Source: a bacterium (GTDB lineage: Bacteria; Auribacterota; UBA3054). Taken from it: 51,409 bases of DNA. A program made the position numbers and the translations under genes. Each line of letters opens with the position of its first letter. The first letter of the stretch is position 1. The DNA lies in assembly GCA_017650925.1 (NCBI GenBank), contig JAGCDY010000072.1, positions 1 to 51,409 on the forward strand. The letters run 5' to 3'. Positions 2,418 through 41,932 of this stretch are shown piece after piece. The notes beneath the pieces were generated by a model that did not search any database, was not told the origin of the DNA, and was given only the letters and a program-made list of their open reading frames with translations.

Positions 2418-3662
2418 TTAATGGATCGCCATGCGGAAGCCGATATTGTTGTTCCTGACGTTCTTGCCCATTCTCATGGCAATGCGGCAGTTGCCCGCCG
2501 GGTCGTTGTAATAAATACTGCCGCCCTTGACGACGTAGGGAGCCGAGAGGGAGCGGTTGCCGACGGGGTCGGTCAGAGGATTAGTGCCAAGGCGTTGGAG
2601 GTGGTGGTCAAGGCAGAGATCCCAAACGTTGCCGTGCATGTCGTAGAGACCGTTCAAGCCGGGCTGTTTCGTGCCCGCTTCGTGGGGACGGCCGAAGTGG
2701 TCTTGGCCGCGCGTATCGTTATGCCAGGCGAGAACGTCCAAATGAGACCAGTCGACGGCGTTCGTGCCGCCCTGCTCCCACTGGAAGGGAGTGCCGTCGT
2801 TCCAGACATAGTCGCCGTGGTAGGTGCCGTCGCCCTTGTCCCTGGCGGCCAGCTCCCACTGGCCTTCCGTGGGGAGGTCGAAGGTGAGGCCGTAGCCGGT
2901 CTTCTGGCGCAGTCTGCCGAAGAAACTGTTGGTGTCCACCCTGTAGTCTATCTTGTTGGGCCAGGTCTTGCCGTAATTGGTACCGCGCAGATCATCCATG
3001 TTGATCTGAACTCTGGACACCTTGCAGGTGGAGACCGTCTCGCTGTTTATTTTATCGAAGTGGGCTTCGGTGCACTCCAAAACGCCGAGATAGAAAGCTT
3101 TCGTTATCGTCACCTGGTGCTTGTCTTCACCGTTGCTGGCGGTCGGTTCTCTGCCGATCTCATCCGTGGCGGAGCCCTGGTAGCAGGTGCCGGCGTTTAT
3201 TCTCTTGAACCAGACCTCGGTGGTCTTGCAAGTATCCAGCGCAACGTTCGGGCCGACCTCGCTGTGGCTCATGGTGTAATCGTTGAGATTCAAGACAAGA
3301 TAATTAGCGGCGGAGGTGACGTCCAGGGCGACAACGGCGAACTTGGCCTCACTGGTGTCAAGGTTCGGGTAGTCTACGGAAGCGTCCCAGGTGATTTTTT
3401 TCGTGCCCGCGCCAAGGGTAACGCCGCAGGCGCCGTCGCCTTCAAGGTTGTTGAGGGTGATCGTAGAGCCGCCGATCTGGCCGTAGAAGGCCACGCGGAA
3501 GACCGGGTCGCTCTGGTTGGAGGTCAGGGTGTATACAATGTCTACTTTGCCGTTGAAGGGCCAACGCTGCTCGGCGGTGACGCTAGTCACCGTACTGTTG
3601 GCCAAAACGGATGAGGCAAGGACTAAAGACAGCAAAAACAAAAAGAAGGATCTGTTGTTCAC
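2418..3662 (-). CDS. Secreted FGE/SUMF1-like (sulfatase-modifying-factor fold) protein with an N-terminal beta-sandwich-like domain
   Basis: Signal peptide MNNRSFFLFLLSLVLASSVLA. FGE-fold motifs are present (GLYDMHGNVWDLCLD, KGGS....CR, IGFRMAI). It is a paralog of 4598-5890 and of the C-terminal part of 20083-21753. Confidence 0.8.
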   Translation of the reverse strand: MNNRSFFLFLLSLVLASSVLANSTVTSVTAEQRWPFNGKVDIVYTLTSNQSDPVFRVAFYGQIGGSTITLNNLEGDGACGVTLGAGTKKITWDASVDYPNLDTSEAKFAVVALDVTSAANYLVLNLNDYTMSHSEVGPNVALDTCKTTEVWFKRINAGTCYQGSATDEIGREPTASNGEDKHQVTITKAFYLGVLECTEAHFDKINSETVSTCKVSRVQINMDDLRGTNYGKTWPNKIDYRVDTNSFFGRLRQKTGYGLTFDLPTEGQWELAARDKGDGTYHGDYVWNDGTPFQWEQGGTNAVDWSHLDVLAWHNDTRGQDHFGRPHEAGTKQPGLNGLYDMHGNVWDLCLDHHLQRLGTNPLTDPVGNRSLSAPYVVKGGSIYYNDPAGNCRIAMRMGKNVRNNNIGFRMAIH

Positions 3663-4597: not shown

Positions 4598-5890
4598 TTA
4601 GAAAACGATAGCGATGCGGAAACCAATGTTGTCGTTCTTGACGTTTTTAGTCAATCTCATGGCCATGCGGCAGTAGTTGGGCGGGTCGTTCTTGTAGATG
4701 CTGCCGCCTTTAACTATGGCAAAATTGCCTATGTCTGAGCCGACAGGGTCGACTACGGGATCCGTGCCAAGGTGGTTCAGAAAGCGGTCCATGGTGTATT
4801 CCCAAACGTTGCCGTGTATGTCGTAAAGACCGTTGATGCCTGGCTTCTTCAAGCCCACTTCATGGACGACGCCCCTGGTGCCGGTCTGATCAGCGTACCA
4901 GGCAAGGTTGGTAAGATCGGAATAGTCGACGTATTGCGTGATGATCGGATTTTCAGGATCCGTATCGTCGATCTCGGTCTTCCAAAAAGTGGTGCCGTCG
5001 TTCCAGACATAGTCGTCGTGGTAAGTTCCGTCGCCCTTGTCCCTGGCGGCCATTTCCCACTGCGCCTCGGTGGGCAGGTCGAACTTCAGGCCGTAGCCGG
5101 TCTTCTGGCGCATTTTGCCGAAGAAGCTGTTGGCGTCCACCCTGTGGTCCGTATAGGCGGGCCAGGTTATCCCGTACTTGGAGCCGCGCAGATCCTCGTA
5201 TTTCAACTGAGTCTTGGGAAGCATGCTGGAACTGCTGGCGCCGGTAAGCGTCGCGAATTGGGCTTCAGTGGTCTCGAAAACGGCGATGTAGAAAGGCTTC
5301 GTTATGGTCACCTGGTGCTTGTCTTCGTAGTGCTTGGGGTTGGTCGGCTCCCTGCCCGGCTCGTCGGAGACGGAACCCATGTCGAAGGTCCCGGCCTTTA
5401 TCCTCTTGAACCAGATCTTCCAGGTCTTGCAGTTTTTGTGCGTGTCCTGCTCGATGTCGGGTCCGGCCATGTTGTAGCTCATGGTGAAGTTGTTCAGATC
5501 CAACACGAGATAGTCGGCCGCCTCGGTGACGTCAAGGGCGATGATGCCGAACTTCACGTTTTTGGAGTCGATGTTCGGCGCGTCTATGGAAGCGTCCCAG
5601 GTCACTCTTTTGACGCCGGACGCGAAGGTGACGCCGCAGGAGCCCTCGCCTTCCAGGGTGTTAAGGGCGAAAGGTTCGCCGCTGCCTATCTGGCCGTAGA
5701 AGGCCACGCGGAAGATGGGATTAGCCTCGTTGGAGGTAAGAGTGTAGTTGATGTCGACTTTGCCGTTCCACGGCCAGCGCTGGGCGGCGCTGATGTTGGA
5801 CACCACGTTGGTCGCGAGCGGATCGTCAGCGAAAGCCGGGACGACAAAAGCCATAGTCAACAAAAGCAGTAAAAGAGCTCTTCTGTTCAC
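4598..5890 (-). CDS. Secreted FGE/SUMF1-like protein (paralog)
   Basis: GTG start preceded by GAGGA. Signal peptide ...VVPAFA. It has the same N-terminal module (AAQRWPWNGKVDINYTLTS) and FGE-fold motifs (GLYDIHGNVWEYTMD, KGGS...YCR, IGFRIAI). Confidence 0.8.
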   Translation of the reverse strand: MNRRALLLLLLTMAFVVPAFADDPLATNVVSNISAAQRWPWNGKVDINYTLTSNEANPIFRVAFYGQIGSGEPFALNTLEGEGSCGVTFASGVKRVTWDASIDAPNIDSKNVKFGIIALDVTEAADYLVLDLNNFTMSYNMAGPDIEQDTHKNCKTWKIWFKRIKAGTFDMGSVSDEPGREPTNPKHYEDKHQVTITKPFYIAVFETTEAQFATLTGASSSSMLPKTQLKYEDLRGSKYGITWPAYTDHRVDANSFFGKMRQKTGYGLKFDLPTEAQWEMAARDKGDGTYHDDYVWNDGTTFWKTEIDDTDPENPIITQYVDYSDLTNLAWYADQTGTRGVVHEVGLKKPGINGLYDIHGNVWEYTMDRFLNHLGTDPVVDPVGSDIGNFAIVKGGSIYKNDPPNYCRMAMRLTKNVKNDNIGFRIAIVF

Positions 5891-6093: not shown

Positions 6094-8109
6094 TCAGAGA
6101 TTGCGTTCGCTGCGGAAGAAGACGGCTATCTCGTTGATCCTGGCGCTTCTTTCCCTTGAGTCGTAAGTCCTGAGGCAGAGATTGTTTTCCGCGAATTCGT
6201 CGGGGCGCATTCTGTTTGTGTAAAGGATCTTGAACCTGACATAGCGGACCGGCTTGGCGCCGAAGGTGTATTCCTCGCAGGGCTTGTCGGGAATGCCGTT
6301 GTTTTTTAGGCCCACACGCTCCCAGTTCTCGCCGTCCAGGGAGATCTCGATGGTGTAGCGCTGGGCGGAAAGTCCGTCGCTGTATGGATATACCGCTATG
6401 GTGTCGCAGACGGTCGGCGCTTCAAGGTCGATGGTGGCGGTTTGTCCTAACCTCGTGCCTTCCCAGGCGTTGCCGTTGTCAATGACGCCGTCCGTAAGGT
6501 ATTCCGGACCGCAGTCCAGGTATGTTTCATAATTGGAGGTGACGGGTTTTCCGAAGGCGAGGTTGCCTTCAATAAGGCGAGTATCGAGCGTTGTGAAAGT
6601 ATTGGCGGAAAGACCAACGGAGTTCCTTAAGTTCGGGCGGTCGAGGAGGCCGCGGCCGAACTGCACATATTTGATGTTCTTTACTTCCGGAGCGGAGATC
6701 GTGACAGCGTCGGAAGATGTGATCTTCGCTTCGGCGGGATGGAAAACTTTGTCGGAGCCGGCAACCTCAAAGCAGTCGGGCGTTTTTCCGTCGCTGGTCG
6801 TGAGACCGTCGTAGACATTGTCGAAAGTAAGCTTAGCCTTGGCGCCCTCTAGTTCCACGCTTTTTATTTTCGGGAAATAAGGCTTGATGTCATTTTTCCC
6901 GTACTGCTCTTTGAGCGCGAGGTTGGCGAGCCTCACGGCCAGGGGCTTCTTGTCCATCGGATGGATGTTGGCAAGGTCGTCCGCGGTGTCGTAGGCGAGA
7001 GCCATCCCGGTATTGGGAATGTCGAGGGAGCGCGTCTGGGCGTCTATTATTTCGTTGCGGTGGGTGTATATGGCGACGTAGTGCCACGGGGCGATCTGAA
7101 CGTAGTAGAAGGGCAGGTTTTCATTCCAAAGCTCGCGCCAGCCCTCGACGAGGGCGTGCATCTTCTGGTAGTAGGATTCGGCGCAGGGACGGTCGATCAC
7201 GTCGTACTCCGCCTGGTACCAGAGGAAGCCCTTTATCGCAAAAGGAACGAGAGGATGAATCTGCGTGTTGTAGATGGAGCAGTTCTCGTAAGGAGTGGGG
7301 TATTTGGGAGGCTTGGGAGGAGGAGGCATTATTTCGCCTTCCTTTACGGAAACTTTAAGCTTTTCCGCCCATTCCTGGTTTTTCCTGTAGGTGTTGACAA
7401 GGGATGCTTCGTAAAGTTTCCTCTGCTTCTTGACGTCGTAGACGTTGCCTTCCATGCCCTTCACTTTTTCAAAGCCTATGGGCGGAATGTAGGATCTTAT
7501 CGGCGTGCCGCCCCAGGAGGAATTGATGACGCCAATTGGAGCGTCTATTTCTTCCATAAGGCGCCTGGCGAAGAAGTAGCCGATGGCGCAGAAGCCGCCG
7601 AAGGTTCCTCTGCCGGCCGTTTCCGGCGTGCAGACGTCCCAGGGACGGTCGATGTCGAAGCGGGGCGTATAGCTTGTCTTGTTTACAGTTGTCAAGATCC
7701 TGAGGAAGGGATGGTCGGCGTTCTTAACAAGCTCGTCTCCGTTGTAGCAGGCCTTGATGCCCATCTCCATGTTCGATTGCCCGGAGCAGAGCCAGACCTC
7801 GCCGATCAGTATGTCGTTTACGACGATCTCTTCGCCGGTCGAAGCCTTGATAGTCATGGTCTGCGGGACGAAAGTCTTTGTAAGAGGAGCGAGCCTGACC
7901 ATCCAGGAGCCGAAACCGTCGGCGGTCGTCTCCAGAGTTTGGTCTTGGAAGACGACGGTCACTTTGGCGCCCTTTTGGCAAAGGCCCCAAACCGGGACGG
8001 GCTTTCCCTGCTGCAGGACCATGTGGTCGCTTATTACTTTCGGCAGCCTCAATTCGTGATTGCCGGGCTCGATGCCAAGCTCTTTCTCAAAAGACAAAGG
8101 CGAATACAT
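6094..8109 (-). CDS. Sialate O-acetylesterase (SASA/DUF303 family) with a C-terminal discoidin/F5-8 type C-like domain; no signal peptide
   Basis: Contains the motif GEVWLCSGQSNME and SSWGGTPI. The C-terminal roughly 150 aa resemble a discoidin carbohydrate-binding module. It is a paralog of 27187-29133. The start overlaps the RND stop as TAATG. Confidence 0.75.
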   Translation of the reverse strand: MYSPLSFEKELGIEPGNHELRLPKVISDHMVLQQGKPVPVWGLCQKGAKVTVVFQDQTLETTADGFGSWMVRLAPLTKTFVPQTMTIKASTGEEIVVNDILIGEVWLCSGQSNMEMGIKACYNGDELVKNADHPFLRILTTVNKTSYTPRFDIDRPWDVCTPETAGRGTFGGFCAIGYFFARRLMEEIDAPIGVINSSWGGTPIRSYIPPIGFEKVKGMEGNVYDVKKQRKLYEASLVNTYRKNQEWAEKLKVSVKEGEIMPPPPKPPKYPTPYENCSIYNTQIHPLVPFAIKGFLWYQAEYDVIDRPCAESYYQKMHALVEGWRELWNENLPFYYVQIAPWHYVAIYTHRNEIIDAQTRSLDIPNTGMALAYDTADDLANIHPMDKKPLAVRLANLALKEQYGKNDIKPYFPKIKSVELEGAKAKLTFDNVYDGLTTSDGKTPDCFEVAGSDKVFHPAEAKITSSDAVTISAPEVKNIKYVQFGRGLLDRPNLRNSVGLSANTFTTLDTRLIEGNLAFGKPVTSNYETYLDCGPEYLTDGVIDNGNAWEGTRLGQTATIDLEAPTVCDTIAVYPYSDGLSAQRYTIEISLDGENWERVGLKNNGIPDKPCEEYTFGAKPVRYVRFKILYTNRMRPDEFAENNLCLRTYDSRERSARINEIAVFFRSERNL

Positions 8110-19890: not shown

Positions 19891-19976
19891 GTGGGCTTTG
19901 CCAAGCATCGCAAGCGCCCCTCAAAATCCGCATAAACAATGAAATTTTTCTAAATCGTTGCTTTTTTTTGACTTTT

Positions 19977-19985
19977 TGATAAAAT
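19977..19985 (+). promoter_or_regulatory. Candidate extended -10 promoter (TTTTTGATAAAAT) for gene 20083
   Basis: TGATAAAAT is preceded by a T-tract. The same motif occurs at 27139, 33368, 41924 and 48042. Confidence 0.35.
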
Positions 19986-20082: not shown

Positions 20083-21753
20083 ATGAAAAAAGCGATTCTA
20101 TTTAGCATTGTCGCGCTTCTTTGCGTGACGGCGCTCTGTGACGAAGCCTGGTCTCAGGCCGGCAGCTTCGACGGAAGCGAGCTTACACAAGCTTCTTTCC
20201 TTTTACGTCCGACCGATTCTTTGTATTACAGCAGCGCTTTGGCGGACGGGACTCCCGTTTCCTTAACTATCGGCGCGGTCGATCAGTCGGATTCAACCAA
20301 GACTGACGCGATCTTTTCCGACAACAGCGGAACGGCAGTGGAAGGATATGCGACCTGGGATTACACCACTTCCGATCTGCCGAAGAACGACACCTACACC
20401 ATAACGGAAACGGTCGTCAGCTCGTATGAAACTAAATCGCTTTCACGCTCTGTTACGATCCTGCCTGAACCGGCAATTTTAGCTTTGCTAGTCATTGCCG
20501 GCTCGCTCTTCCTTCGCAAGCGCGTTAAAGCTCTCGTTGCAATCTTGGCGCTTGTGTCTGTTTCTGCCATCGGCGCCAAAGCCGACGTTGTAAGCGGAGT
20601 CGCTTTCCAGCAAATGCTGCCGTTCACCAGAGACGTAGCGATAACCTATACTGTGACCCCTGCCGCGAACACGATCTATGATGTTAAGTTCTACGGCTCT
20701 ACGGACAACGGCGCGACTGTATTCGATCTTCAGGACAGGGGAGAGCTTCATTTGTCAGTTGCCAACCTTAACGAGACCTTCTGCAGCGCCGGAACACACG
20801 AAGTCGTCTGGACGCCGGATGAAAGTTTTTATTCCACCAAAGTCAACAATTTCAAAGTCAAAGTTGAAGCGACGGCGATCTCCAGCGCAAGTAATTACCT
20901 GGTCATAGACCTTTCGGGCGGGACCCAAGCCGCAAGTTATCCTGTAAGCTATCTCAGTGACGTACCATCTGGCGGCTGGAGTGACGACTACAAGACCACC
21001 AAAATGGTCATGCGTCTGATTCCCGCAGGAACATATATTATGGGAAGCCCTGAAGGCGAAGTGGGAAGAAAGGACGGTGAAACTCAGCACAAAGTGACGT
21101 TGACGAAGCCGTTCTATGCCGGCGTTTTCGAGGTGACCCAGAACCAGTATGAATTGGTCACTGGCTCGACCCCTTCTGAGCATCAAGGAAATGCCAGGCC
21201 GGTGGAAAGAGTTTCATACAACATGCTCCGCGGAACGGATAAAGGCGCTGGCTGGCCTGCTAACAACGAAGTTGACGAAGATTCGTTCTTTGGCATTCTC
21301 CGCGACAAAACCGGTTTAAGCTTTGACCTTCCCACGGAAGCGCAGTGGGAGTTCGCCTGCAGGGCGGAAACGACCACAGCTTTGAACAGTGGGAAGAATC
21401 TGACCGGCACAAACGAAGATGCGAACATGAATGAAGTCGGTCGCTACAGTTACAATCAAAATGATGGGAAAGGCGGATATAGTCAGCACACCACCGTCGG
21501 CTCTTATCTTCCCAACGCCTGGGGATTGTACGATATGCACGGCAACGTGTATGAGTGGTGCCTGGATTGGTCTGGATCGTACGGTGGAAATGCAGTCGAT
21601 CCGAAAGGCGCAAGCGTTGGAACTAACCGTGACCAACGGGGCGGAGGCTGGAAGCTTAGCGCCCAATACTGCCGCTCTTCTTACCGCAGCGGTGACAGAC
21701 CCTTTGCCAACGGCAGCAATCAAGTCGGTTTTCGTGTGTTCCTGGTTCAATAA
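20083..21753 (+). CDS. Fusion protein: PEP-CTERM module (aa 1-147) joined in frame to a signal-peptide-like segment, a beta-sandwich domain and an FGE/SUMF1-like domain
   Basis: N-terminal signal peptide MKKAILFSIVALLCVTALC. An internal LPEPAILALLVIAGSLFLRKR lies at aa 127-147 (nt 20461-20523). It is followed immediately by VKALVAILALVSVSAIGAKA, then a domain homologous to the N-terminal domains of 2418-3662 and 4598-5890. FGE-fold motifs follow (GLYDMHGNVYEWCLD, RGGGW..YCR, VGFRVFL). Confidence 0.75.
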   Translation: MKKAILFSIVALLCVTALCDEAWSQAGSFDGSELTQASFLLRPTDSLYYSSALADGTPVSLTIGAVDQSDSTKTDAIFSDNSGTAVEGYATWDYTTSDLPKNDTYTITETVVSSYETKSLSRSVTILPEPAILALLVIAGSLFLRKRVKALVAILALVSVSAIGAKADVVSGVAFQQMLPFTRDVAITYTVTPAANTIYDVKFYGSTDNGATVFDLQDRGELHLSVANLNETFCSAGTHEVVWTPDESFYSTKVNNFKVKVEATAISSASNYLVIDLSGGTQAASYPVSYLSDVPSGGWSDDYKTTKMVMRLIPAGTYIMGSPEGEVGRKDGETQHKVTLTKPFYAGVFEVTQNQYELVTGSTPSEHQGNARPVERVSYNMLRGTDKGAGWPANNEVDEDSFFGILRDKTGLSFDLPTEAQWEFACRAETTTALNSGKNLTGTNEDANMNEVGRYSYNQNDGKGGYSQHTTVGSYLPNAWGLYDMHGNVYEWCLDWSGSYGGNAVDPKGASVGTNRDQRGGGWKLSAQYCRSSYRSGDRPFANGSNQVGFRVFLVQ

Positions 21754-27117: not shown

Positions 27118-27138
27118 ATTAAAGGGAAGCGTATTTTT

Positions 27139-27147
27139 TGCTAAAAT
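27139..27147 (+). promoter_or_regulatory. Candidate extended -10 promoter (TTTTTTGCTAAAAT)
   Basis: TGCTAAAAT preceded by a T-tract lies 40 nt upstream of the 27187 ATG. The AAGGGA Shine-Dalgarno is at 27177. Confidence 0.45.
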
Positions 27148-27186: not shown

Positions 27187-29133
27187 ATGCAGGCTCTCTT
27201 CGCTTTTCTTGTTTCCATCGGCGTCGCCTTAGGCACGCAGCCTCTTTCCACTTCGACCGTCTTTTCCGACCACATGGTCCTTCAGCAGGGAAAGCCTGTG
27301 GCCGTCTGGGGTCAGGGCACGAAAGGCTCTACCGTTGAAGTGACCTTCATGGACCAGACGAAAAAGACGACCGTTTCAGACGAAGGTTTGTGGAGAGTCG
27401 ACCTTGACCCCATGCCGGTCGTGAGAGAAGGAAAGACGCTGACGATAAAGTCTGATAAAGGCGAAAAACTAGAATACAACGACGTGCTTGTCGGCGAAGT
27501 CTGGTTCTGCTCCGGACAATCCAACATGGAGATGGGCTTGGGCGCCGTTGAGAACGGTGAAGAAGAGATCAAGAACGCCACTGATCCCTTGATCAGAGTC
27601 TTCGAGCCGAAGGTCAGGGCGAGGTATCTAATTGCCACCGACATCGACGCGGATTGGAAAGTCTGTTCCCCGGAAGTCGTGAGGGAAGGAGCCTTCAACG
27701 GTTTCGGCGCCATCGCTTATTTCTTCGCGCAGAGACTGAGAGCCGAGCTGGATGTGCCGGTCGGCGTCATCAACAGCTCTTGGGGCGGCACGCCCATCAG
27801 AGCTTACATTCCGCCCGAGATCTTTGACGAATATCCAGAGGTCAAAGGCAATTCCGACACCTTCTACAGAGAGAGGAAAGAGTACCTTGACAGAGCCAGG
27901 TGGTTCGTTCAGAGCTCCCAGACCTGGATCAACGGGCTGAAAGGCAAACTCGCCTCCGGACACAATGAGATCAAATACCCGCCCTCCTTCCCGGAAGACC
28001 CCGGTTCGAGCGACCCCTGCGCCATCTACAACGCCATGATCGCCCCCTTGGTTCCCTACACCATAAAAGGCTTCCTTTGGTACCAGGGCGAATACGAAGT
28101 CATTGAGCGCGCCTGCGCCCGCGCGTATTACTACAAGATGCACGCTCTCGTGGAAGGCTGGCGCAAAATTTGGGGCGAGGAACTGCCCTTCTATTACGTC
28201 CAAATAGCCCCCTGGGCGCACTCGGGGGTCTACCAGAACAGGCCCGACATCATAGACGCCCAAATGAAGGCCCTGGACATCCCCAAGACCGGCATAGCGC
28301 TTAGCTACGATCTCGTCGATGATCTCGGCGACATCCATCCTAAGAAGAAGCGCCAGCTGACCGAGAGGCTCTCTAACCTCGCGCTCAAGGAAGTCTACGG
28401 CTATGAGGATCTGAAGCCCTACAGCCCCGTTATGGAAAAAGTCGTACTTGGCAGCGCGGAAGCGAAAGTCTATTTCAGCAACGTTTACGACGGGCTGAAG
28501 ACTTCGGACGGCAACGATCCCGACCTTTTCAAGGTCGCGGGTCCCGACGGCAAGTTCGTTCCTGCCGCGGCGGAGATTTCAGGCTCCAATGTCGTCACAC
28601 TTACGAGCGCCGAGCTTCCCGAGATCAAGTACGTGAGCTACGGCAGAGGTCTGACCGATCAGCCGAACTTAAGAAACAGCGAAGGTCTGCCGGCCAGCAT
28701 CTTCACGACCTACGACGCAAGGGTCAAAAATCTGGCTTATCATCAGCCTGTTGAAGCGGAATGCTACCTCGACTGCGACGGCTATTATCTGACGGACGGC
28801 CTCATAAACCGCCACAACGGCTGGGAAAGCTACAAGAAGAACGAAGGCGAAGCCATCGTTAAGATGAAGGAGCCCAAGGAAGCCGACACGGTCGTCCTTT
28901 ATCCCTTCAGCGACGGCAAGGACTGGCAGCGCTTTATCGTCAGCGTAAAAGGATCTGACGGCGAATGGAAGGAAGTCGGCAAAAAGGACGACTACAAAGC
29001 CACGCAGGAAAAATACGTCTATAAATTCAACAGGCAGGAAGTGAGCGAAATCAAGCTCCAGTGCATCCAGACCTTGAACTGGCAGCGCTCCCGCTTTAAC
29101 GAAATACAGCTTTACGACGGTTATGAGGAATAA
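27187..29133 (+). CDS. Secreted sialate O-acetylesterase (SASA family) with a C-terminal discoidin-like domain
   Basis: A signal peptide is present. Contains GEVWFCSGQSNME and SSWGGTPI. It is collinear along its length with 6094-8109. Confidence 0.75.
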   Translation: MQALFAFLVSIGVALGTQPLSTSTVFSDHMVLQQGKPVAVWGQGTKGSTVEVTFMDQTKKTTVSDEGLWRVDLDPMPVVREGKTLTIKSDKGEKLEYNDVLVGEVWFCSGQSNMEMGLGAVENGEEEIKNATDPLIRVFEPKVRARYLIATDIDADWKVCSPEVVREGAFNGFGAIAYFFAQRLRAELDVPVGVINSSWGGTPIRAYIPPEIFDEYPEVKGNSDTFYRERKEYLDRARWFVQSSQTWINGLKGKLASGHNEIKYPPSFPEDPGSSDPCAIYNAMIAPLVPYTIKGFLWYQGEYEVIERACARAYYYKMHALVEGWRKIWGEELPFYYVQIAPWAHSGVYQNRPDIIDAQMKALDIPKTGIALSYDLVDDLGDIHPKKKRQLTERLSNLALKEVYGYEDLKPYSPVMEKVVLGSAEAKVYFSNVYDGLKTSDGNDPDLFKVAGPDGKFVPAAAEISGSNVVTLTSAELPEIKYVSYGRGLTDQPNLRNSEGLPASIFTTYDARVKNLAYHQPVEAECYLDCDGYYLTDGLINRHNGWESYKKNEGEAIVKMKEPKEADTVVLYPFSDGKDWQRFIVSVKGSDGEWKEVGKKDDYKATQEKYVYKFNRQEVSEIKLQCIQTLNWQRSRFNEIQLYDGYEE

Positions 29134-33363: not shown

Positions 33364-33367
33364 TTTT

Positions 33368-33376
33368 TGCTAAAAT
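33368..33376 (+). promoter_or_regulatory. Candidate extended -10 promoter (TTTTTGCTAAAAT) of panB
   Basis: The motif is identical to those at 27139 and 41924. It lies 39 nt upstream of the panB ATG. Confidence 0.4.
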
Positions 33377-37579: not shown

Positions 37580-39202
<1,623 letters not shown>

Positions 39203-39216
39203 GCTTACCGCTTATT

Positions 39217-39326
39217 GCGGAGCGAAAAAGAAGAACGCACCCCCAAGCGAACTCACGGAGGACGCAAATCAAGGCAATGCACGCGTAGTCCGTGAGCGGG
39301 GGGTGCGTTCTTTTTTTCGCGCAGCG
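39217..39326. repeat. Copy A of a roughly 110-nt palindromic terminator-like element, inverted relative to copy B
   Basis: Its reverse complement matches 40402-40509 with 2 substitutions and 2 one-nt indels. It folds as a long imperfect hairpin flanked by A5 and T7 runs. It lies between the pgi stop (14 nt away) and the hydE stop (0 nt away). Confidence 0.85.
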
Positions 39327-40382
39327 TCAAGCGATTTTATGATCGCCGCGGTCGACTACGATCTCGTAGCCCGCGCAGGCTACCCGGGCGGAAAGACACT
39401 TGATGCATTCCGCCGATTCGCTGCCGGTGCAGATCTTCCCGTCATAGATCGCGTATTTGTCACGGACGCTTACCGGCGACAGATTCGGCATGACGACGTT
39501 CGCGCCGTGCCTTAAGCCTTTTTCGCGGCCCTCGGGATCGATCGTGCCAAGCGCGGTGGTGGCCGGCAGCAGAACGTCAGGGACCAGAAGGCGGATGATG
39601 GAAAGGAGCTTCAGCGTCAGCATCAGTCCGCCCTGCGGCTCATCTTTGAAGATCGTGTCTTTATGGGGAATGAAAGGACCGATGCCGCACATGTCGGGTT
39701 TGAATTCAGAGATGAAACGAAGGTCAGCGATAATGTTTTCTGTCGTTTGGAAAGGGGAACCGACCATCATGCCGCAGCCTACCTGAAAGCCTATTTCGCG
39801 TAGCGTTTTAAGGCAGTTCATGCGGTTTTCCCAAGAGAGATTGGCGGGATGCAGTTTCGCGTAATGCTCGGGCGAGGCGGTCTCGTGGCGGAGAAGATAG
39901 CGGTCGGCGCCCGCTTCAAAGAAAGCGCGGTAGCTCGCTTCGCTTTTCTCTCCAATGGAAAGCGTCACGGCGCAATCCGGATGCATCGCCTTTATCTCGC
40001 GAACCAAATAGATGATCTTGTCGTCGGTGTAATATGGATCCTCGCCGCCCTGCAGGACGAAAGTTCGGAACCCGAGTTCATATCCCTCTTTAACGCAGCC
40101 CAATATTTCTTCATCGCTGAGGCGGTAGCGGTCGGCTTTCGTATTTCCGCAGTTGATGCCGCAGTAGTAGCAGCCGTTTTTGCAATAGTTCGTGAACTCG
40201 ATGAGGCCCCTTACGTATACGGCTTTTCCGTAGATCTTCTCGCGGACTTCCCTGGCGCAGGCGGCAAGATATGAAACAGCGTCAGTGTCTTCTGTCGACA
40301 GAAGAGCTTCCAGCTCGGCATCCGAGACGCCGCGCGCCGCTTTAAGCTTGTTGATAATCGCTTTGATATCCATCGATTTCAT
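39327..40382 (-). CDS. hydE: [FeFe]-hydrogenase H-cluster radical SAM maturase HydE
   Basis: The radical SAM motif is CKNGCYYC. It is collinear with HydE throughout (YLLRHETASPEHYAKLHP, GIGPFIPHKDT, LPATTALGTI, GANVVMPN). The C-terminal Cys triad reads C-x8-C-x2-C (CTGSESAECIKC). Confidence 0.8.
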   Translation of the reverse strand: MKSMDIKAIINKLKAARGVSDAELEALLSTEDTDAVSYLAACAREVREKIYGKAVYVRGLIEFTNYCKNGCYYCGINCGNTKADRYRLSDEEILGCVKEGYELGFRTFVLQGGEDPYYTDDKIIYLVREIKAMHPDCAVTLSIGEKSEASYRAFFEAGADRYLLRHETASPEHYAKLHPANLSWENRMNCLKTLREIGFQVGCGMMVGSPFQTTENIIADLRFISEFKPDMCGIGPFIPHKDTIFKDEPQGGLMLTLKLLSIIRLLVPDVLLPATTALGTIDPEGREKGLRHGANVVMPNLSPVSVRDKYAIYDGKICTGSESAECIKCLSARVACAGYEIVVDRGDHKIA

Positions 40383-40401
40383 TGTAGCAGAAAACGCTGT
40401 T

Positions 40402-40509
40402 CGCTGCGCGAAAAAAGAACGCCCCCCCGCTTACGGACTACGCGTGCATTGCCTTGATCTGCGTCCTCCGTGAGTTCGCTTGGGGGTGCGTTCTTCTTTT
40501 TCGCTCCGC
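40402..40509. repeat. Copy B of the palindromic terminator-like element, inverted relative to copy A
   Basis: See copy A. It lies 19 nt upstream of the hydE ATG and about 110 nt downstream of the guaA stop. On the minus strand it reads as a hairpin followed by T6. Confidence 0.85.
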
Positions 40510-40536
40510 GAGAATTTGCGATGAACGCGCTCTGAG

Positions 40537-40606
40537 CCAAATGTGGCGTGTATCCCGTAAGCAAACTTAGCGAAGCCTGTTTGCCAAGGGATATACGCCA
40601 ATTTGG
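40537..40606. repeat. Second, unrelated long hairpin immediately downstream of guaA
   Basis: The stems are CCAAAT/ATTTGG, GGCGTGTATCCC/GGGATATACGCC (1 mismatch) and GCAAAC/GTTTGC, around a 12-nt loop. There is no T-run. Confidence 0.6.
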
Positions 40607-40618
40607 CGAAGAATGCGG

Positions 40619-41842
40619 TTATTCAAATTCGATCGTTGACGGCGGTTTCGGCGTGATGTCGTACAGCACGCGGTTCACGCCAGGAACCTCAGCCACGATG
40701 CGGACCGCCACCTTGCGGAGCAGCTCGTAGGGGATCTGCGCCACTTCCGCGCTCATCGCGTCGGAAGACAAGATCGCGCGCAGGCAGATGGCTTCCGCGA
40801 ACGTGCGGCGGCCGTCTTTTACGCCAGTAGACTTGAAGCCGGGGCAGACCGCGAAATACTGCCAGATCTGCTTGTCGAGACCGGCGTTCTTGATCTCCTC
40901 ACGCCAGATGGCGTCGGCTTCGCGGACGGCCGTGAGCTTTTCCCTGGTGATCGCGCCGACGACTCGGACGCCGAGTCCGGGGCCCGGGAAGGGCTGGCGC
41001 CAGACCTGCTCCTCGGGGAGGCCGAGGGCGGTGCCGACGTTTCTAACTTCGTCTTTGAAGAGCCATTTAATGGGCTCAAGGAGCTGGAAGTCGACATCCT
41101 CGGGCAGGCCGCCCACGTTGTGGTGCGATTTGACCATGCCTTTTTTGGAGAAGCTCTCGATGATGTCGGGGTAGATGGTGCCCTGAAGTAGGAAGTCCAT
41201 TTTGCCTAATTTGGCGGATTCTTCCTCGAAGACTCTGATGAATTCCTCGCCGATGATCTTGCGCTTCTTTTCCGGATCGTCAACGCCGGCCAGCTTAGTG
41301 AGGAAGCGCTCCCTGGCGTCGATCATGATGAGGTTCATCTTGAAGGTCTCCTTGAAGATCTTCTCGATGGATTCAGGCTCATTCTTGCGCATAAGGCCGT
41401 GGTCGACGAAGACGCAGGTCAGCTGGTCGCCGATGGCGCGGTGCACCAGCGCGGCGCACACTGAGCTGTCGACGCCGCCCGAGAGGGCGCACAAGACTTT
41501 CTTGTCGCCGACGGTCTTTTTGATCTCCTCAACGGCGTTCTCAATAAAGGATTCGACCGTCCAGTCCTGCTTGAAGCCGCAGGAAGTTATGAAGGAGAGG
41601 AATTCCTCGTTGGACTTGACGTTGCCCTCCGCCAGGACGGGAACGTTGTAGCTTTTGAGGACGCTCAGGTCGCAGGCGGCCTCGTCGTCGCCGATGGCGA
41701 CGATGGCTTTCGGTTTCAGTTCAGCGGTCAGTTTTTCCACGGGCAAAACTTCGCAGTAGACCTTGGCGGACCTGGCCTGTTTCGCCACTTTCTGGTTGTT
41801 GTGGGCGCCGAAATCGGCGATCAGAAGAAGTTCTTTGTTCAT
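40619..41842 (-). CDS. guaA: GMP synthase ATP-pyrophosphatase plus dimerisation domains, with a vestigial N-terminal amidotransferase remnant
   Basis: The PP-loop reads SGGVDSSV. Also contains [23 protein letters not shown] and the C-terminal KPPSTIEFE. Only about 93 aa precede the ATP-PPase domain, against about 200 in canonical GuaA. Confidence 0.85.
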
Positions 41843-41881: not shown

Positions 41882-41923
41882 AAATCGCCCCGAGCATTCA
41901 AGTGGCACTCCGTCTCGATTTTT

Positions 41924-41932
41924 TGCTAAAAT
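41924..41932 (+). promoter_or_regulatory. Candidate extended -10 promoter (TTTTTTGCTAAAAT) of cdaA
   Basis: The motif is identical to those at 27139 and 33368. It lies 26 nt upstream of the cdaA ATG at 41958. Confidence 0.4.

Follow-up and report, generated by a model that had tools for sequence, protein, structure and literature searches.

The 51,409-nt stretch analysed here (hereafter the window; contig JAGCDY010000072.1 of assembly GCA_017650925.1, from a bacterium of the lineage Auribacterota, UBA3054) was found to contain two copies of a long palindromic unit of about 110 nt, one on each side of the gene hydE. On balance, the unit is probably a locus-specific compound hairpin serving as a two-way Rho-independent terminator, with the copy between guaA and hydE (copy B) being ancestral, the copy between hydE and pgi (copy A) being secondary and the hydE unit being an insertion.

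Copy A (39217..39326, + strand) is a 110-nt compound hairpin in the convergent gap between pgi and hydE, where it begins 15 nt past the pgi stop and extends as far as the stop codon of hydE (0 nt away), and its + strand reads GCGGAGCG...CGCGCAGCG. Copy B (40402..40509, − strand, which is the sense strand for guaA and hydE) separates guaA from the promoter motif of hydE, and its end is 19 nt from the first in-frame hydE ATG. Both copies have the GCGGAGCG-to-CGCGCAGCG orientation when read in the sense direction of the gene at whose 3′ end they lie, pgi for copy A and guaA for copy B. With 39217-39326 as the query, blastn showed the two intervals to be reverse complements that agree at 96.4% of 110 aligned columns, the differences being 2 substitutions and 2 one-base gaps (E ~1e-45), and it found no third copy in the 51-kb window. 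The initial annotation had described an inverted pair of about 96% identity, with copy A abutting the hydE stop and copy B placed 19 nt before the ATG, and had named the three genes as pgi, hydE and guaA; all of this was confirmed. It had also described the similarity as abrupt at both ends, which holds for the distal side and fails on the hydE-proximal side. An ungapped repeat search gave arms at 39212-39320 and 40406-40514 with 89% identity, and about 11 nt of extra weak similarity was found on the hydE-proximal side (39312-39337 against 40391-40416, 85%); the sharp repeat boundary is therefore restricted to the distal side.

The unit was found to contain about 110 nt, 37 pairs and a conserved interior of 54 nt, with a GC content of 0.59 against 0.555 for the genome. 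The basal helix contained 24 pairs (AGCGAAAAAGAAGAACGCACCCCC..GC paired with GC.GGGGGGTGCGTTCTTTTTTTCGC), followed by an asymmetric internal loop (AAGCGAAC), the inner helix (CTCACGGA/TCCGTGAG), a further 4-bp helix (ACGC/GCGT) and an apical loop of 17 nt (AAATCAAGGCAATGCAC). The outer stem arms AAGAACGCACCCCC/GGGGGTGCGTTCTT were also present. The basal helix sits between an A-run and a T-run, which places a GC-rich stem and a U-rich sequence on either strand, and the build of an intrinsic terminator was seen in GAACGCACCCCC/GGGGGTGCGTTC, which leads into T7 on one strand and into TTCTTTTT on the opposite strand. The significance of the folds was judged against dinucleotide shuffles from the RNA minimum free energy, which was −67/−69 kcal/mol for copy A (z about −8) and −53/−61 kcal/mol for copy B (z −5 to −6); over both copies the z-scores ranged from −5 to −8.5 and 0 shuffles folded equally well. 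The stems, the asymmetric loop and the long hairpin proposed in the initial annotation were thus found in very stable folds, and its terminator-like build with flanking A-run and T-run agrees with both fold and sequence.

The basal helix was 100% paired in all six sequence variants of the unit, and in copy A of the related loci L007 and L032 three G:C pairs of this helix were changed to A:U with full compensation. Mismatches were found to be tolerated in the inner helix. An attempt to read the strand of action from G.U against A.C stem changes was dropped, the changes being balanced with 4 cells each way. Rfam gave 0 matches at gathering thresholds over the whole window and only chance-level matches (≤22 bits) at a permissive threshold, and a scan of the window for tRNA and tmRNA gave no useful result.

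In the searches made, the unit was found at the hydE locus only. A scan of 185,579 species, each represented by a single genome, made with the outer stems and a free interior (GAACGCACCCCC N35-65 GGGGGNGCGTTC), gave four loci, all in ruminant-gut metagenome-assembled genomes with one match per genome, and all four were the orthologous guaA|hydE gap. The apical-loop motif, scanned against 241 million metagenome records, was found at the copy-B site of L008, at the copy-A site of L010 and in one chance match within a coding sequence. Plasmid, phage and viral collections contained no match to the unit. In about 380 kb, which comprised the window and the related loci, no further unit was detected with a covariance model based on the six distinct variants. 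Within the reach of the exact-pattern scans and of this model, the unit is locus-specific and low-copy, with one or two copies always beside hydE, in a small clade of ruminant-gut bacteria that probably belongs to Kiritimatiellota. A dispersed family of repetitive extragenic palindromic (REP) or MITE (miniature inverted-repeat transposable element) type, the first of the three options of the initial annotation, was not borne out, the exact-pattern collection scans matching only hydE-flanking sites apart from the one chance match.

Every clade member examined (the window, L004, L005, L006, L007, L008 and L029-31) was found to contain copy B, with its orientation to hydE unchanged, at a distance of 12-110 nt past the guaA stop across lineages. 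All copies directly follow stop codons, that of guaA for copy B and those of pgi plus hydE for copy A. Copy A was found to be variable. It is inverted relative to copy B in the window, and copy A of L010 shares the window orientation. In L007 copy A is direct relative to copy B, and the copy A of L032 has the L007 orientation relative to hydE; in these two loci the entire unit is flipped, its non-palindromic ends included. In L004 and L029-31 copy A is deleted, with a pgi-hydE spacing of 22 nt and an 11-nt remnant of the unit. The 'empty' site in L004 and L029 resembles a deletion because these 11 nt are retained. In L005 and L006 copy A is missing beside hydE, and unrelated genes are found after hydE instead. 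Copy A is evolutionarily unstable and copy B is constant. Since copy A differs among lineages, the hydE 'bracket' is a state of the window lineage and not a conserved design. On its two sides the hairpin has GCGGAGCG and GCGCAGCG, which look like a direct repeat but are identical at both sites and flip with the unit in L007.

At the hydE|pgi junction, L006 (1995-7448) was found to contain four open reading frames (ORFs) of 299-673 aa in a low-GC stretch and L005 (51-3401) was found to contain three ORFs; none of these junction ORFs had a Pfam or PADLOC match. This junction seems to be a hotspot for gene gain. For guaA, L005 and L007 were the closest pair (92.5% nucleotide identity), and for hydE the closest pair was L004 and L007 (89.3%); these discordant similarities suggest that recombination between the lineages of L004, L005 and L007 took place inside the locus.

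The sequence of the unit was found to be conserved far more strictly than its surroundings. The four-fold degenerate sites of hydE and guaA were 58-77% identical among clade members, against which the unit matched at 110/110 positions between window copy A and the copy B of each of L005, L006, L007 and L008. Copy A of L010 was identical to this pristine unit at 85/85 positions. Window copy B contained 4 changes (2 substitutions and 2 one-base deletions against the consensus), followed by copy B of L004 and copy A of L007 with 8 changes each, and copy B of L029 and copy A of L032 with 10 changes each. In a 3.4-kb multi-species alignment copy B was the best-conserved 60-nt block (0.94-0.96). It looks as if each genome had one pristine copy and a second copy in decay, the L004/L029 lineage being the exception.

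The position of hydE between pgi and guaA was found to differ from the layout in related lineages. In the window pgi (37589..39202, + strand) is convergent with hydE and has copy A at its 3′ side, and guaA (40619..41842, − strand) is co-directional with hydE and is followed at its 3′ side by a second hairpin, H2, and then by copy B. In the sister lineage L038/L039, pgi and guaA are directly convergent at a distance of about 145 nt, with neither hydE nor the 110-nt unit, and the gap contained an ordinary 18-bp hairpin of −24 kcal/mol. The proteins of this lineage were 79% (pgi) and 83% (guaA) identical to those of the window, and synteny was kept on both sides. In a related clade (L011-L028) the order was found to be thiM-thiE-thiD-thiC-hydE, with HydE 79-84% identical to that of the window, and this hydE was followed by feoAB in several lineages, by a marR-family regulator gene or by small unannotated ORFs. 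The covariance model found no 110-nt unit at the thiC-hydE loci. Since pgi and guaA are convergent and lack hydE in the sister lineage, the block of copy B, promoter and hydE, with or without copy A, was inserted between pgi and guaA in the clade ancestor, and hydE has changed its chromosomal address between the clades. The second option of the initial annotation, a mobilised hydE unit, therefore stands as far as relocation is concerned, by virtue of the sister lineage without hydE and of the thiC-linked hydE. Its other part, that the hairpins were the movers, found no evidence: no target-site duplication was visible at the outer flanks, the window contained no transposase and the thiC-locus hydE did not contain such flanks. 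A duplication creating the HydE C-terminus, considered because its last codons resemble the inner flank of copy B, was rejected since the HydE of the thiC clade shares the ...DHKNA end.

The gene hydE (− strand; TIGR03956, 562 bits) is listed as an ORF at 39327..40382, and its likely coding sequence is 39327..40373, of 348 aa. An extended −10-like motif, TTTCTGCTACAAT (40381..40393, − strand), was found between copy B and this gene, ending 7 nt before the ATG at 40373 and fitting the pattern TTTBTGHTAHAAT. The pattern occurred five times in the window against 0.01 expected, and all five sites lie upstream of a gene in the correct orientation. These TTTTTGCTAAAAT-type sites are at 19973-19985, 27135-27147, 33364-33376 and 41920-41932 on the + strand and at 40381-40393 on the − strand. 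The pattern is probably the main promoter −10 signature of this organism. The motif and its 7-nt spacing to the hydE ATG were found to be kept in the window, L004-L007, L029 and the thiC-hydE clade. The first ATG of the listed ORF (40382) overlaps the motif, and the HydE homologues P0003-P0009 are 348 aa long and start at the Met equivalent to the ATG at 40373; for these two reasons the hydE start is likely to be 40373. The hydE mRNA is probably leaderless or near-leaderless, which would account for the missing Shine-Dalgarno sequence; a search of the literature on hydE together with leaderless mRNA gave nothing relevant. The statement of the initial annotation that there is no room for a hydE promoter was wrong, the enriched motif lying between copy B and the ATG.

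Taken as a mechanism, the terminator reading would run as follows. A promoter-hydE unit was inserted in the clade ancestor between pgi and guaA, which until then had been convergent neighbours. The ancestral and constant copy B would stop guaA transcription and would shield the hydE promoter that starts 11 nt downstream, the T-run of copy B being at about −43 to −37 of this promoter. From the extended −10 motif, which is followed by the ATG after 7 nt, a leaderless hydE mRNA would be made. In the convergent gap copy A would stop both the pgi and the hydE transcripts, and it would be a secondary, replaceable copy derived from copy B. We infer from sequence the termination, the insulation, the leaderless start and the copying direction from B to A.

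Several observations were found to weigh against a plain terminator. Among the pristine copies neither the 17-nt apical loop nor the internal loops vary, and an identity of 110/110 despite four-fold sites at 58-77% exceeds what is expected of a terminator; the ordinary terminators in these genomes contain stems of about 10-18 bp. The reading does not account for the wholesale flip of copy A with its non-palindromic ends, and diverged copies of the unit may exist elsewhere in the source genomes, given that the collection-wide scans used exact patterns and that the tolerant covariance model covered about 380 kb. A terminator role accounts for the basal helix and the A/T runs and does not account for the invariant loops; what it leaves unexplained above all is that one copy in each genome is almost perfectly conserved, in its loops as well. 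It is here that a functional structured RNA, or an RNA-protein site going beyond termination, has to be considered, for instance as a small, stable RNA about 110 nt long that would be released from the 3′ end of the mRNA of guaA or pgi, with its 17-nt loop binding a target or a protein. One intact copy per genome would then be under selection and the second would be free to decay, with the terminator being merely the outer shell. The identity of the pristine copies (window A, B of L005-L008 and L010 A) with their loops against the diverged four-fold sites speaks for such an RNA, as do the division of the copies into pristine ones and ones with 4-10 changes, the exactly one pristine copy found in most genomes and the direction of every pristine copy, which is GCGGAGCG-to-CGCGCAGCG in the sense of guaA or pgi. 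This explanation is regarded as possible but rather unlikely, since no Rfam match was found, the L004/L029 lineage retains only a copy with 8-10 changes, and the stem substitutions show no strand preference (4 cells are unpaired on one strand and G.U on the other, and 4 are the reverse).

The discrete character of the unit, which is present or absent at the same site, occurs in both orientations, and contains exact ends and long terminal inverted arms pairing over 24 bp, would also fit a mobile palindrome of MITE-like type and low copy number, comparable to SPRITE or ERIC; alternatively, the pair would be left over from a composite element by which promoter and hydE were brought into the gap between pgi and guaA. 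The insertion of hydE relative to the sister lineage, the neighbouring H2 as a second palindromic block with presence and absence, and the adjoining of some pristine copies to diverged genes, as in a recent arrival, point the same way. We consider this origin quite doubtful: no copy away from hydE was found in any search, the outer flanks contain no visible target-site duplication and the window no transposase, the thiC-locus hydE is without such flanks, and the copy B variants are common to the related L004 and L029, as is expected under vertical descent. The third option of the initial annotation was an invertible or read-through switch, in which the inverted pair would flip hydE by recombination or copy B would be a regulated attenuator for a guaA-driven hydE. 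Inverted repeats of 110 nt at a distance of 1.1 kb are a possible inversion substrate, and copy B does lie between the co-directional guaA and hydE. The orientation of hydE was, however, the same in all strain contigs and all relatives; all six contigs encoding an identical HydE contained the window orientation, and the three contigs read were 99.99-100% identical. The repeats are direct in L007 (copy A of L032 being oriented to hydE as that of L007 is), four lineages lack copy A, and the arrangement is not conserved. No recombinase, transposase or integrase domain was found in the large ORFs of the window, the promoter motif lies inside the bracketed segment and would be carried along with hydE by an inversion, and the folds of the copies showed no alternative pairing of the anti-terminator kind. 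A switch of either kind is very improbable. An integron attC cassette was also rejected, since no GTTRRRY or RYYYAAC core was found in the unit by eye and no integrase in the window, and a replication terminus or dif-like site was dropped because the GC skew shows no switch at the locus.

Among known systems, the unit is a long terminator-like palindrome lacking dispersal, and the nearest kinds are bidirectional intrinsic terminators, SPRITE and ERIC. Like bidirectional intrinsic terminators it contains a GC-rich stem between an A-run and a T-run directly after stop codons, whereas it differs from the ordinary ones, which elsewhere in these genomes are hairpins of 10-18 bp, in its length of about 110 nt, several times theirs, its 37 pairs and its conserved 54-nt interior, and also in its two near-identical copies, conserved far past the neutral-site expectation. 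The pneumococcal SPRITE is likewise terminator-like and over-long with AAAA/TTTT-type ends (PMC3049150), and SPRITE and the unit share a location near gene 3′ ends, a preference for convergent pairs and the lack of an established target-site duplication (PMC3049150). SPRITE is AT-rich and present in 30 dispersed copies per genome (PMC3049150), whereas the unit is slightly GC-richer than its genome and is present in one or two copies at one locus. ERIC, or IRU, is an imperfect palindrome of about 110-130 nt highly conserved between species, as the unit is (PMC10969869), and both are found present, absent or reversed at the same intergenic site among relatives (PMC10969869). For ERIC the copy number per genome is in the tens to hundreds (PMC10969869), and no such dispersal was detected for the unit. 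Invertons of the PhaseFinder type share with the window the inverted repeats that bracket a short segment; the window differs in containing no recombinase, a single orientation and an arrangement that is not conserved, and its segment comprises an entire gene together with the promoter of that gene, and not an outward-facing promoter.

The second hairpin, H2 (40531..40613, no strand assigned), is a long hairpin unrelated to the unit that lies between the guaA stop and copy B, with the arms GCCAAATGTGGCGTGTATCCC and GGGATATACGCCAATTTGGC. Against the unit covariance model it scored 32-34 bits only, a score that any generic long hairpin can reach, and H2 as a diverged relative of the unit was dropped. 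H2 was 103/103 identical in L006 and 97% identical in L007. The block, of about 100 nt, was absent from L004, L005, L008 and L029, which contain 12 nt instead, and this distribution was patchy against the gene trees.

The product of guaA contained 407 aa and the ATP-pyrophosphatase part only, with no glutamine amidotransferase (GATase) domain, and no partner GATase subunit was found nearby. The best named relatives were found in Clostridia for guaA (Anaerovoracaceae, 73-75%) and for hydE, and in Kiritimatiellales and Pontiellaceae for pgi; an old lateral transfer of guaA and hydE may have occurred. In the sister lineage, AT-rich sequence was found to interrupt the convergence of pgi and guaA in some contigs of the same samples, beginning inside the guaA 3′ end in L039 (6815-6930) and following guaA in L033 (7230-7401); these interruptions are either strain variation or insertion. 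Elsewhere the window was found to contain three diverged paralogues with an FGE-sulfatase domain (2418-3662, 4598-5890 and 20083-21753), two of them in tandem, with 71-81% nucleotide identity, followed by two SASA/F5_F8-type-C esterase-like paralogues (6094-8109 and 27187-29133) in inverted orientation and about 71% identical.

For the biology of this clade, the idea of an inversion or read-through switch of hydE gives way to an ordinary layout, that of a relocated gene with its own, probably leaderless, promoter, placed between two convergent housekeeping genes and fenced by long terminator-like hairpins. The locus would be a natural example of a single relocated gene that brings its own promoter and is insulated on both sides. 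The hairpin itself may be regarded as a candidate new conserved non-coding element, with one letter-perfect copy per genome despite a neutral divergence of a quarter to two-fifths. On the less likely structured-RNA reading, it would represent an undescribed structured RNA or RNA-protein site of a rumen Kiritimatiellota lineage, arising from the 3′ end of a housekeeping mRNA (guaA or pgi), with near-absolute purifying selection on exactly one intact copy per genome.

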